64,000 nucleotides of DNA, taken from contig MNEF01000106.1 of the NCBI GenBank assembly GCA_001917535.1, forward strand, positions 1,511 through 65,510, in the 5' to 3' direction. Under the pieces are notes generated by a model that was given only the letters and a program-made list of their open reading frames with translations, was not told the DNA's origin and made no database searches. This document shows positions 24,901 through 28,558 of the stretch, piece after piece. Numbering within the stretch: position 1 is the stretch's first letter; every line of letters starts with the position of its first letter. Position numbers and translations under genes: made by a program. Source of the stretch: Candidatus Rokubacteria bacterium 13_1_40CM_69_27 (lineage in GTDB: Bacteria > Methylomirabilota > Methylomirabilia > Rokubacteriales > CSP1-6).

Positions 24901-26130
24901 GTGGCGGTCGGATCCAGCATCGAAGCGGCTCTCGCCCACATCGATGAAGCGGAGCTGGTCGCGCTGACGCGCGACCTCGTCCGTATTCCGAGCGTCGTCC
25001 GTCCCGATGACTCCCACGCCACCGAGGGAGCCGTCGCCCAGTACATCGAGCGCTGGTTCGTCAAGGAAGGTCTGAACGTCGAGGTCCAGCCGGTCGCCCC
25101 CGGCCGGCCCAACGTCGTCGCCTGGCTCGGCGACAAGGGGGACGGCCGGTGCCTGCTGCTGGAGGGGCACACCGACGTGGTCACCGAGGGCAATCCCGCC
25201 GAGTGGCGCTACCCGCCCTTCAGCGGCCAGGTCGCCAACGGGCGCATCTGGGGGCGCGGTGCCGCCGACATGAAGGGTGGCCTGGCCGCGGCGATGATCG
25301 CGGCGGCGGCGATCAAGCGGAGCGGTGTGCCGCTGGGCGGCCGTCTGGTGGTCGGCGCGCTGGTCGACGAGGAAGGGGACATGCTGGGCGTCAAGCACCT
25401 CTGCGCGACGCCGATCGGCCAGGAGCTGGACGCCGCCATCATCTGCGAGCCAGAGCAGAACCAGCTGTGCCTCGAGCAGCGGGGCGTGGTCTGGGCCCGG
25501 GTGCTGATCCGCGGCCGCATGGCCCACGGGGCCATGCCGGAGGCGGGCGTGAATCCGATCGCGGGACTGGCGGCGCTCCTCCACCAGGCGCCCCGGCTGG
25601 AGCGCCGGCTGCGTCGACTCTGCCGGCGCAGCCGCTATCTTCGTCCGCCCACCGTCACGGCGACGGTGGTGCAGGCGCCCGTTCATGGCACGCCCCAGTC
25701 GAACGTCATCCCGTCGGCGGCTCAGGCGACGCTGGACATCCGTCTCACGCCGGGACCGGACGAGACCGTGGTGTCGGCCGAGATCGAGCGTGCCTGTCGG
25801 GCCGCCGCGGCGAGCGTTCCCGGCCTCAGTGTCGAGTGGTGGGCGCTCAACGGCTTCCGCCCGCCGACCACCGTGGACCGGCGCGAGCCTCTGGTGCGTG
25901 CCATGATGACGGCCGTGCGCCAGGCGACGAGGCGCCGGCCGGTTTTCGGCGGCGTGCCGGGCTCGACCGACGGCACGATTCTTCGGACGACGCGAGGCAT
26001 CCCGATCGTGACGTGCGGCCCTGGGAACCGGCTTATCGCGCACCAGGTGAACGAATGCGTCGAGGTATCAGACTTGGTCGATGCAGCGCGAATCTATGCC
26101 GGATCGGTCTTGAACTTCCTCAACCTATGA
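24901..26130 (+). CDS. M20 family (ArgE/DapE-like) metallo-deacylase
   Basis: GHTDVV, GRGAADMKGG, DEE, EP, AHQVNE. Confidence 0.92.
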   Translation: MAVGSSIEAALAHIDEAELVALTRDLVRIPSVVRPDDSHATEGAVAQYIERWFVKEGLNVEVQPVAPGRPNVVAWLGDKGDGRCLLLEGHTDVVTEGNPAEWRYPPFSGQVANGRIWGRGAADMKGGLAAAMIAAAAIKRSGVPLGGRLVVGALVDEEGDMLGVKHLCATPIGQELDAAIICEPEQNQLCLEQRGVVWARVLIRGRMAHGAMPEAGVNPIAGLAALLHQAPRLERRLRRLCRRSRYLRPPTVTATVVQAPVHGTPQSNVIPSAAQATLDIRLTPGPDETVVSAEIERACRAAAASVPGLSVEWWALNGFRPPTTVDRREPLVRAMMTAVRQATRRRPVFGGVPGSTDGTILRTTRGIPIVTCGPGNRLIAHQVNECVEVSDLVDAARIYAGSVLNFLNL

Positions 26131-27353
26131 ACGAGGACACGCCCCGGCTCCGTCCCCTCGAGGCCTCCCCGGTCGAGCACGAGGGACAGCGGCTCGTCGC
26201 CCTCCGCGACCCGGCGGGCTACACGACGTCGATCTTGCTCCTGCCGCTGCCGCTCCTCGAGGTGCTGGCGCTCCTCGATGGCCAGCGCTCGATCCTCGAC
26301 ATCCAGGCGGAGTTGGCTCGGCGCCACGGCGAGATCGTGCCGCGAGCCGACATCGAGGACGTCATCGCGGCGCTGGACGAGCACGGGTTCATGGAGAGCG
26401 CGCGGTTCGCGGCCCGGCGGGCGGCGATCGACCGCGCGTTCGTCGCGGCCGCGGTCCGGCCGGCAGCCCACGCCGGCAGCGCCTACCCCGTGGATCCGGG
26501 GGAGCTTCGCCGGGCCATGGATGCCTTCTTCACGACCTCCGGCGGGCCCGGTGCGATCGACCGCACGGCCGCGCGCGCCGACGGGCTCAGAGCCGTCATC
26601 GCGCCCCACATCGACTATCACCGCGGCGGCCCCGGGTACGCGTGGGCCTACCGCGACCTGGCCGAGCGGAGCGACGCCGACCTCTTCGTCATCTTCGGCA
26701 CCTGCCACGCCGGGATGCCCGACCCGTTCGCGCTCACGCGGAAGGACTACGACACCCCGTTCGGGCCGGCCCCCGTCGATCGCGACTTCGTCGAGCGGCT
26801 GGCCGCGCGCGCGGGCCAGGACTGTTTCGCCTCCGAGGCGGCACACCGTGTGGAGCACTCGATCGAGTTCCAGGCGGTCTTCCTCCGCTACCTCTCCGCG
26901 GGGCGGCGCGACATCGCGATCGTCCCCGTCCTCGCCAGCTTCGCCCACGAGGCGCTGGCCGGGCGCCGGCGCGTCGAGGACGATCCACGCATCCCCAGAT
27001 TTCTCGAGGCGCTGGGTGAGACGATCGCCGCCAGCGGACGCCGCGTGGCGCTCATCGCCGGAGCCGACCTGGCCCACGTGGGGCCGCGCTTCGGCGACCC
27101 CGAGCCGGTCTCGCCGAGCGAGCTCGACCGCATCGAGCGGGAGGACCGCGCCATGCTGGGGGCGGTGCAGAGCGGCGATGCCGCCGCCTTCTTCGAGTCG
27201 GTCGCGCGCGACAACGACCGGCGGAGGATCTGCGGGCTCTCCCCGATCTATGCCCTCCTGCGCGCGCTCGGCAGCGGCGCGGGGTCCCTGCGGCACTATG
27301 GCCAGTGGCCGGATCCTCAGGGCGTCGTCAGCTACGCCAGCGTGGTGTTTTGA
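26127..27353 (+). CDS. amrB: MEMO1-family (AmmeMemoRadiSam protein B) with an N-terminal PqqD/RRE-like extension
   Basis: RPAAHAGSAYP, IAPHIDY, GTCH, EHSIEFQ, GADLAHVG, RICG; ATGA overlap with the M20 gene. Confidence 0.88.
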   Translation: MNEDTPRLRPLEASPVEHEGQRLVALRDPAGYTTSILLLPLPLLEVLALLDGQRSILDIQAELARRHGEIVPRADIEDVIAALDEHGFMESARFAARRAAIDRAFVAAAVRPAAHAGSAYPVDPGELRRAMDAFFTTSGGPGAIDRTAARADGLRAVIAPHIDYHRGGPGYAWAYRDLAERSDADLFVIFGTCHAGMPDPFALTRKDYDTPFGPAPVDRDFVERLAARAGQDCFASEAAHRVEHSIEFQAVFLRYLSAGRRDIAIVPVLASFAHEALAGRRRVEDDPRIPRFLEALGETIAASGRRVALIAGADLAHVGPRFGDPEPVSPSELDRIEREDRAMLGAVQSGDAAAFFESVARDNDRRRICGLSPIYALLRALGSGAGSLRHYGQWPDPQGVVSYASVVF

Positions 27354-27808
27354 TGGCCACGCCCGAGAGCGAGTGGAAGCTCCCCCGGCTGCGCATCGAC
27401 GTCAACGGCGACTGGCTCGACGACGGCGTCGAGGTCACGCATCCGGGAGTCCTGGCGAACCTGCGCGCGAACCTCCGGCGAGACCCTCAGGGCTACTTCA
27501 TCCAGACCCGGGTGCGGATCCCGGTGGAGGTGGACGACGTTCCCTGGGTCGTCGCCCGGGTCGAGCTGAGCGGCGAGCGGCTGCACGCCGTCCTCAACGA
27601 CGGCACCGAGACCGACGTCGATCCCGCGACGATCAGGCTCGGCGTCGGCAACGTCCCCTACTGCGCCGCCAAGGGCGGAGGATTCGAGGCGCGCTTCAGC
27701 CGGGCCGCGGCGTTCCAGCTGCTGGCGCTGGCGAACTATGACGAGCGGACGGGCGAGGGAACGCTGCGCGTGGGCAGCCGCGAGGTCCCCCTGAGGCGAC
27801 GGGCGTGA
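27353..27808 (+). CDS. DUF1285-like protein
   Basis: LRIDVNGDW, PVEVDDVPWVV, PYC, ARFSRAA; TGATG overlap with amrB. Confidence 0.72.
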   Translation: MATPESEWKLPRLRIDVNGDWLDDGVEVTHPGVLANLRANLRRDPQGYFIQTRVRIPVEVDDVPWVVARVELSGERLHAVLNDGTETDVDPATIRLGVGNVPYCAAKGGGFEARFSRAAAFQLLALANYDERTGEGTLRVGSREVPLRRRA

Positions 27809-28272
27809 CGGGGAGGACCGTCGTGGGGGGACTCCTGGCGGCGGGGCTCGCCCTCGGTGCCGGGGCCTGGTGGCTGCGCGGCGATGGCGCGGGCTCGGTG
27901 ACCATCGACAGCATCGGCGATCGGGTGCAGACGGTCCCGCGGGGGCGGTGGCCCGTCTTCGCCGCCAAGCCCGAGGTGGCGGAGCTCTACCGCTTCGTCG
28001 CCACCGAGGGCGACTGGGCGGCCTCGGTGCCCTGCACGTGCGGGTGCGCGGATCTGGGCCACACCTCCAACCGCTCCTGCTACATCAAGGCGGAGACCGC
28101 CGAGCGCGTCACCTTCACCAGCCACGCCGCCACGTGAAGCCTCTGCCTGGACATCACGCGTGACGTGATGCGGCTCCGGGCGGAGGGTCACTCGCGCGCG
28201 GCGGCCCGGGCGGCGATCGACGCGAAGTATCTCCGCTCCGGCCGCCCGACGCCCACGCCGCTGCCGCCATGA
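27805..28272 (+). CDS. PCYCGC-family membrane-anchored protein, predicted selenoprotein (Sec111, 155 aa)
   Basis: PCTCGC...HTSNRSCY...HAAT-TGA(28135-37)-SLCLDI...IDAKY...PTPTPLPP. The family sequence continues in frame past the TGA, which occupies the first C of H-x3-CxxC. Confidence 0.85.
28152..28170 (+). promoter_or_regulatory. Candidate bacterial SECIS hairpin
   Basis: CATCACG-CGTGA-CGTGATG: perfect 7-bp stem, loop 21 nt after the TGA, G at loop position 2. Confidence 0.65.
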
Positions 28273-28286
28273 GGCGAGCGCGAAAG

Positions 28287-28316
28287 TTGACAGGTCAGAC
28301 CCGCGGTCGGTAGTGT
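28287..28316 (+). promoter_or_regulatory. Sigma70-type promoter candidate
   Basis: TTGACA-18 nt-TAGTGT upstream of the small Cys-rich ORF and the TRAP operon. Confidence 0.5.
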
Positions 28317-28339
28317 ACCGGCGCGGAGGGAGCACGGAC

Positions 28340-28558
28340 ATGAGGATCGACGAGTACAAGTGCGTGGCCTGCGGCACCATGTGCGGCCACGGCATGGTCT
28401 CCCACAACTTCGTCAAGAAGATGGTCGACTGGGTCAAGGAGGGGCGGCGCACGCCCGCGCAGGCCGCTCGCTACATGGCGCGGTTCTGCATCTGCGGCGT
28501 CTTCAACACGGTCCGCGCCGAGAAGCTCTTCGAGCAGGCGCGGACCCGGGGGGCTTGA
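28340..28558 (+). CDS. Small Cys-rich protein (72 aa)
   Basis: GGAGG RBS; GC3-rich codons; CVACGTMCGH and CIC motifs; 4 nt before dctP. Confidence 0.7.
   Translation: MRIDEYKCVACGTMCGHGMVSHNFVKKMVDWVKEGRRTPAQAARYMARFCICGVFNTVRAEKLFEQARTRGA

Follow-up and report, generated by a model that had tools for sequence, protein, structure and literature searches.

Selenoproteins with a PCYCGC domain (PF13798) already figure on published lists. A table in a 2026 review contains the row 'CYCXC family protein (OS_HP4), PF13798, UxxC', with one selenocysteine (Sec) (PMC13188914), and the list of a 2022 review names a 'Hypothetical protein OS_HP4, UxxC' (PMC9312934). In NCBIfam the group is represented by NF041379, 'CYCXC family (seleno)protein', an equivalog labelled OS_HP4_CYCXC. 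A full-text literature search on PCYCGC and CYCXC returned no study of the family beyond such table rows. OS_HP4 was not found in the main text, the searchable part, of PMC1976440 or PMC2398784, and a search on selenoprotein and Rokubacteria yielded only work on another phylum. A passage of the 2026 review mentions a Methylomirabilota MAG predicted to carry 63 selenoprotein genes (PMC13188914).

The window analysed here is a stretch of 64,000 nucleotides (G+C content 69.8%) from Candidatus Rokubacteria bacterium 13_1_40CM_69_27, a member of the Methylomirabilota. It contains a candidate PCYCGC selenoprotein gene that bears the signature of recoding (Table 1). Under translation table 11 the open reading frame covers 27805-28137 and is closed after 110 aa by the TGA at 28135. 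The frame past this triplet reads SLCLDITRDVM...AIDAKY...PTPTPLPP and adds 44 codons, giving 155 aa in total. With read-through, the score against PF13798 (gathering cut-off 25 bits) rises from 32.3 bits for the cut-short form to 73.1 bits, and the match covers profile positions 44-153 of 153. The in-frame TGA lies in the context H107-A-A-T-U111-S-L-C114, that is H-x3-U-x2-C, and the protein carries PCTCGC at residues 76-81, with H86, C92, H107, U111 and C114 falling in invariant PF13798 columns. An earlier sequence-only reading of this DNA had claimed that the frame stays open beyond the called end, that the downstream part completes the family fold, that the TGA occupies the place of the first Cys in H-x3-CxxC and that the N-terminus is a hydrophobic anchor. 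All four claims are borne out, the match reaching the last profile position and residues 7-21 being hydrophobic and modelled as a helix.

Table 1. Features of the PCYCGC locus and its upstream neighbours in the window
Feature	Position	Strand	Remarks
Memo-like gene	26127..27353	+	PF01875, 139.7 bits
DUF1285-like gene	27353..27808	+	Stop overlaps the GTG start of the selenoprotein gene at 27805 (GTGA); N- and C-terminal halves match Pfam at E 0.007 and 0.046, below cut-off
Candidate PCYCGC selenoprotein gene	27805..28272	+	155 codons plus stop TGA 28270-28272; PF13798
N-terminal hydrophobic helix, putative signal anchor or signal peptide	27823..27867	+	Residues 7-21; AlphaFold2 helix of low pLDDT
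P-C-T-C-G-C motif (C77, C79, C81)	28030..28047	+	Invariant Cys columns in full-length homologues
In-frame TGA, predicted Sec (U111)	28135..28137	+	First residue of U-x-x-C, after H107-x3; TGA column in 27/27 related loci
SECIS-like hairpin, 7-bp stem CAUCACG/CGUGAUG, loop CGUGA	28152..28170	+	Begins 14 nt after UGA; CATCACG 28152-28158, loop CGTGA 28159-28163, CGTGATG 28164-28170

Compared with OS_HP4/NF041379, the window protein has the same Pfam domain, the same Sec column (HAATU-x-x-C), a hairpin at the same distance, an N-terminal anchor and the same invariant Cys and His residues. It differs in carrying PCTCGC instead of CYCxC, in the sequence of the hairpin, in an extra β-hairpin insert of ~11 residues (IKAETAERVTF) and in a PTPTPxP tail. 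Its score against NF041379 is 41.2 bits and that of two clade relatives (L042 and L051) ~55 bits, all below the cut-off of 90, while the sister-clade loci that were scanned (L043, L044, L046 and L048, four of the five) pass at 130-135 bits. The window gene adds a member to an established selenoprotein family, within a sister clade missed by NF041379; unlike OS_HP4, this clade goes unnamed by the NCBI model and is held clipped in databases. The selenoprotein had been called 'hidden' in the sequence-only reading. This is right in that gene callers miss it, but not in that the family already stands in published selenoprotein tables and in NF041379, and a PCYCGC selenoprotein is not a new kind. 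Cys-form PCYCGC (lipo)proteins (PF13798; Chloroflexota and Bacillales) match the domain end to end at 30-52% identity and have all eight putative ligand positions in common with the window protein, but they carry Cys for Sec and lack both the hairpin and the synonymous constraint described below. Many of them are reported to be lipoproteins (PMC13068155), in contrast to the predicted helix anchor of the window protein.

Of 61 related genomes searched, 29 contain the gene, and 27 loci were extracted and aligned. At identities of 34-92%, every one of the 27 has a TGA in the same column; without L041, whose genome is flagged as unpublished, the count is 26 of 26. In relatives with two TGAs, the second is simply the stop codon. 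Across the phylum, a scan of 201 genomes with the PF13798 model (four of these genomes being flagged as unpublished) gave matches in 119, and 133 of the 137 matches listed contain an in-frame TGA. Three of the remaining four are fragments that leave the column uncovered, and the fourth (G152) is a full-length Cys form (...HAADCDIC...). The TGA is thus not private to this assembly. Three copies deviate in other ways. L035 (G011) and L039 (G033) keep the TGA and the hairpin but run into a TAG 17-19 codons past the Sec position and lose the last two helices; they could be decaying copies or assembly errors. At G183:C104:6678-7008 the family match falls into two adjacent pieces (profile positions 40-92 and 103-151), a sign that this copy may carry a frameshift or an insertion.

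An exhaustive search without a profile returned 757 relatives beyond the phylum at E up to 0.001, and the best 150 of the 757 were examined. Sequences running past the Sec column number 133, with Cys in 130 and Ala, Trp and Gly in one each, confirming the proposed pairing of Cys with TGA at this column. The other 17 stop early, 16 of them exactly one residue short of the Sec column. The Trp and Gly cases (P0135, ...MAPTWGIC..., and P0158, ...MAPTGEIC...) are probably TGA codons translated by the gene caller under code 4 or code 25, in which case both would be mistranslated selenoproteins. Among the matches listed by a word-indexed search (120), 118 have lengths of 97-117 aa and query coverage nowhere exceeds 71%, indicating that the clade is stored clipped, at ~110 aa, in public databases. 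The closest homologue among these matches is named Methylomirabilota bacterium and another is named Candidatus Rokubacteria bacterium.

The sequence-only reading had also pointed to a 7-bp hairpin at SECIS distance from the TGA. In the window it is extended by a lower stem (28140-28151 with 28175-28186), and the segment 28135-28190 folds at -32.9 kcal/mol (z -4.78), a stability equalled by none of 200 shuffles. A perfect hairpin of at least 7 bp at such a distance follows 1.7% of window positions (2157/127880), so that a single hairpin is weak evidence and the weight is carried by conservation. Each of the 27 loci forms all seven pairs as standard pairs, using one of two registers offset by a single nucleotide. 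The 22 loci of the window clade share the stem (A/G)UCAC(G/C) with (G/C)GUGAU, whose distance from the UGA is constant, and L028 shows a compensatory swap of G:C to C:G at the cost of an Asp-to-Glu change. In the five sister-clade (NF041379) loci the peptide at this place is DEALDAS, and a 7-bp stem GAGGCGC/GCGUCUC with a 5-nt loop is found, shifted by one base. If one register is imposed on the alignment, the paired fraction is 94.2% of cells, and in four pairs both partners vary. None of 500 shuffles reached this fraction or the observed covariation score, and pairing falls to 9.5%-58.2% once the partner is shifted by one or two columns. The independent events are few (two clades and L028), and the covariation therefore counts as support rather than proof.

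The RNA hairpin is under selection. In 19 full-length clade genes, the third-codon-position difference is 0.058 over the seven hairpin codons versus 0.44 over the next twenty, with 0.46 over the sixteen codons before the UGA. As a control, 79 Chloroflexota Cys-form genes encoding nearly the same peptide (DITQDVM) gave a third-position difference of 0.435, and only one of them has a perfect hairpin of at least 7 bp at the equivalent place. The constraint on the RNA thus goes with the TGA and not with the protein sequence. The spacing resembles that in the organism's own selD, where a 7-bp stem lies 13 nt after the UGA. In Rfam, scanned with 28050-28350 at a threshold of E 10, no SECIS family came up, only four miRNA/sRNA rows attributable to chance. 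Like the SECIS of the E. coli fdhF type, the window hairpin lies within the coding sequence, 14 nt after the UGA, and has a small apical loop holding G and U; it differs in that its sequence is unrelated. Conserved, constrained at synonymous sites and missing from Cys forms, the hairpin pointed out earlier behaves as a SECIS and is a putative SelB site.

The genome of the window (3.68 Mb in 127 contigs, 93.6% complete) encodes the Sec machinery, and the organism is able to decode Sec. Contig C80 carries a cluster of tRNA-Sec (selC; 69.7 bits, cut-off 47), selA (582 bits) and selB (368 bits), and a selD of Sec type (345 bits) is found on C122 with its own in-frame TGA at the usual catalytic position. 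Each of the four, which the sequence-only reading had proposed to look for, exceeds its curated cut-off. The selD gene (L009, C122:113903-114847, - strand) reads ...SCAGUASKM... across the in-frame TGA; together with the hairpin downstream of it, this TGA indicates that SelD is itself a selenoprotein in this genome.

Taken as a mechanism, the UGA at 28135 would be recoded to Sec during translation: SelB with Sec-tRNA(Sec) would bind the hairpin 14 nt downstream and bring Sec to the ribosome, and the TGA at 28270 would serve as the true stop. A broken gene, its TGA due to nonsense mutation, misassembly or a pseudogene lesion, would agree with the practice of gene callers and public databases, which treat the TGA as the end, with the short entries in 118 of 120 listed homologues, and with the early TAG found after the hairpin in L035 and L039. 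It is nevertheless scarcely credible, given that the 27 independent assemblies, with identities as low as 34%, all have the same TGA, as do nearly all phylum matches, that the downstream frame is conserved as protein, and that the full Sec machinery is present. Another reading takes TGA 28135 as a true stop with a 110-residue product, the downstream part being conserved on other grounds, for instance as a regulatory RNA or a small ORF of its own. A same-frame ORF of 35 codons does exist at 28165-28272, and the hairpin can be read as a regulatory element. Yet Cys-form homologues, which are single proteins, have a C-terminal half that the downstream part matches residue for residue, AlphaFold2 (AF2) packs residues 112-145 into the same domain (pLDDT ~98), and the hairpin is missing from Cys-form genes, all of which makes a true stop very improbable.

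The selenoprotein of the sequence-only reading is supported by this evidence. The analysis covered three outcomes that would have spoken against it, namely absence of selABC, a TGA private to this assembly and an unconserved sequence after the TGA; selABC were found, the TGA recurs throughout the relatives, and the sequence after it is conserved and completes the PF13798 domain. As judged from these comparisons, 27805-28272 is very probably a PCYCGC-family selenoprotein gene that gene callers clip at the UGA.

In 131 full-length homologues, C77, C79, C81 and C92 are invariant (131/131), and H86 is kept in 130, C114 in 129 and H107 in 125. The Sec/Cys column is kept in 129 of the 131, plus the W and G cases. 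The AF2 model, for which 132 sequences were used, has high confidence over residues 31-155 (mean pLDDT 90.8, pTM 0.80) and consists of an N-terminal helix (residues 7-21, low pLDDT), two short β-hairpins and five helices. U111 lies directly before helix 112-126. Reactive CxxC pairs usually sit at helix N-termini, and U111-x-x-C114 may form a redox-active selenol/thiol pair there. The invariant C77, C79, C81, C92, H86 and H107 may hold a metal. Hydrophobic N-termini are present in all aligned relatives, and the product is predicted to be exported or anchored via its N-terminal helix. Proteins exported by the Tat system carry a twin-arginine motif ahead of a hydrophobic stretch. An Arg-Arg pair precedes the hydrophobic stretch in 11 of 22 clade relatives as counted by eye (e.g. 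MNRRLFLYG); these relatives, in which RR resembles a Tat signal, are mostly loci without Memo/DUF1285 neighbours. The N-terminus of the window protein, MTGRTVV, has a single Arg and no Tat motif. An extracytoplasmic metal-binding or redox protein, as first proposed, is a plausible description.

Structure and profile searches led to CcmH/CycL (PF03918; 2hl7 and 2kw0). In a structural search of 48,161 PDB chains the periplasmic domain of CcmH, a three-helix bundle (2hl7_A), ranked first, with Z 5.4 and rmsd 3.2 over 74 of 82 residues, a Z in the range below 8 where the tool may report merely a common arrangement. CcmH was likewise the best match of the sequence profile against the PDB (E 0.12), nothing in that search lying below E 0.1. 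With Foldseek no PDB entry matched at or below E 0.001, CcmH standing at E 1.4 and 5.4, and hhalign against 28 CcmH sequences from the phylum gave E 8e-4, but a probability of 24.6% over 25 columns. The window protein has no Pfam match to CcmH (PF03918) at E up to 0.1, and the genome holds a separate, genuine CcmH. The two would have in common a membrane-anchored small helical periplasmic domain with a redox Cys pair, and their C-terminal helix pairs show the local sequence pattern ...R..V..L...G.S..EI....ID..Y.., and thioredoxin-like partners of the CcmG/ResA/TlpA type are encoded beside some PCYCGC members. In contrast to CcmH, the window protein lacks LRCxxC and possesses a β-hairpin as well as additional CxCxC, His and Cys ligands. 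Each of these signals is weak, and the CcmH likeness is a lead and not a family membership.

In the window, the selenoprotein gene is the last of a four-gene string (24901-28272) headed by an M20 peptidase gene (24901-26130, + strand), with overlapping stops and starts (ATGA, TGATG, GTGA). The order Memo-like, DUF1285-like, selenoprotein gene is kept in 13 of 27 loci, including the window, and the DUF1285-like gene is a probable operon partner. These 13 loci have neither cupredoxin nor thioredoxin neighbours. Two downstream candidates were rejected as parts of the unit. A Cys-rich ORF of 72 codons (28340-28558, + strand; CxxC...CxC) matches no Pfam or NCBIfam family, lacks conservation among the other 26 loci, the match in a congeneric genome being limited to 13 residues, and is perhaps no gene; the DctP gene downstream is common to only one other locus.

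Elsewhere in the two phyla sampled for gene context, Methylomirabilota and Chloroflexota, members of the family have redox neighbours. In a second sub-clade of five loci, a thioredoxin of the ResA/DsbE/TlpA type adjoins on the same strand, with Sco1/SenC added in one (L032). Cupredoxin and polyferredoxin neighbours occur at the Methylomirabilota Sec loci L089 and L093, a polyferredoxin neighbour at L046-L049 (L046 and L048 being NF041379 members) and a cytochrome c match at six other loci. Cys-form genes were sampled at 80 Chloroflexota loci (one record is titled delta proteobacterium), 58 of which have at least 3.4 kb of downstream sequence. The operon order there is PCYCGC, CuA-type cupredoxin, NapH-like polyferredoxin, cupredoxin-cytochrome c fusion and DUF1573-like gene; downstream of PCYCGC in the 58 loci, the cupredoxin is found in 53, the polyferredoxin in 56, the cupredoxin-cytochrome c protein in 56 and the DUF1573-like gene in 49. 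A P-type ATPase is present in 18 of the 80. A search of the window's own genome for the cupredoxin-cytochrome c protein gave only weak, unlinked matches.

In these operons the last residues of the DUF1573-like ORF before its TGA are ...GC at 52 of 52 loci (L107:7280-7711, + strand; L135:7298-7780, + strand; 50 other Chloroflexota loci), and the frame past the TGA encodes a conserved tail, PPTP...MxFMMHxxMxGxHDF.... These features suggest a 'GC-U' selenoprotein whose tail bears a Met/His-rich, copper-like motif. The DUF1573 family already counts among known selenoproteins, tabulated with UGC (PMC13188914); its operon link to PCYCGC is absent from the literature examined.

A role in periplasmic chemistry, of thiols/selenols or of copper, is suggested by the gene neighbourhoods and by the weak CcmH likeness. 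We tentatively suggest, by analogy with CcmH, TlpA and Sco, that the protein may act as a periplasmic selenol/thiol oxidoreductase or as a copper-handling factor for CuA-type cupredoxin/cytochrome modules. This function is transferred from sister clades because the window clade (13 loci) has no cupredoxin or thioredoxin neighbours. A chaperone or sensor, rather than an oxidoreductase, would result if Sec, Cys and His together formed a metal site, most likely for copper. Six invariant Cys/Sec and two invariant His residues would suit such a site, as would the CuA-type cupredoxins in 53 to 56 of the 58 Chloroflexota loci, the P-type ATPase genes, the Met/His-rich DUF1573-like selenoprotein in the same operon, the Sco1 gene adjoining in L032 and the Memo-like gene two genes upstream in the window, human Memo1 being reported to bind Cu(I) or iron (PMC9477392, PMC11081632). 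However, neither Foldseek nor the search of 48,161 chains matched a known metallochaperone fold. Pairs of Sec and Cys, moreover, mostly mark catalytic redox residues, and we regard a chaperone or sensor as possible, though somewhat less likely.

An electron-transfer subunit with an Fe-S or similar cluster, working in the polyferredoxin/cupredoxin/cytochrome c complex encoded alongside in other lineages, appears improbable. The PCYCGC gene does come first in a tight operon with redox proteins in Chloroflexota, the RR N-termini of half of the clade relatives would suit export with the cofactor already bound, and there is a weak profile match to ferredoxin II (1f2g, E 0.22). Against this, the window gene has no polyferredoxin, cupredoxin or cytochrome c neighbours, no Fe-S family was matched in Pfam or NCBIfam, and Sec as an Fe-S ligand is, to our knowledge, unusual. 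Returning to the oxidoreductase or copper-handling factor, a wider scheme may be drawn, which is doubtful when all its parts are taken jointly: PCYCGC/OS_HP4 would be a CcmH-like periplasmic selenol/thiol or Cu(I) maturation factor for cupredoxin/cytochrome c/polyferredoxin modules, coupled to the DUF1573-like selenoprotein; Methylomirabilota copies would nearly all have turned to Sec, and the window clade would have moved to a Memo-like/DUF1285-like operon, hinting at a new metal-trafficking route.

The value of these findings lies in annotation repair and in functional leads, namely a possibly CcmH-like fold, the CuA-cupredoxin operon and the linkage to a DUF1573-like selenoprotein. Hundreds of entries from this clade end at the Sec codon in databases and are missed by the curated NCBI selenoprotein model; widening this model or adding a second one would mend a systematic annotation error in a Sec-rich phylum. 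The switch between Sec and Cys at one residue marks that residue as the reactive one. Together with a confident model and the CuA-cupredoxin operon strongly conserved in Chloroflexota, it yields a concrete hypothesis, open to testing, on a protein that occurs in several phyla.
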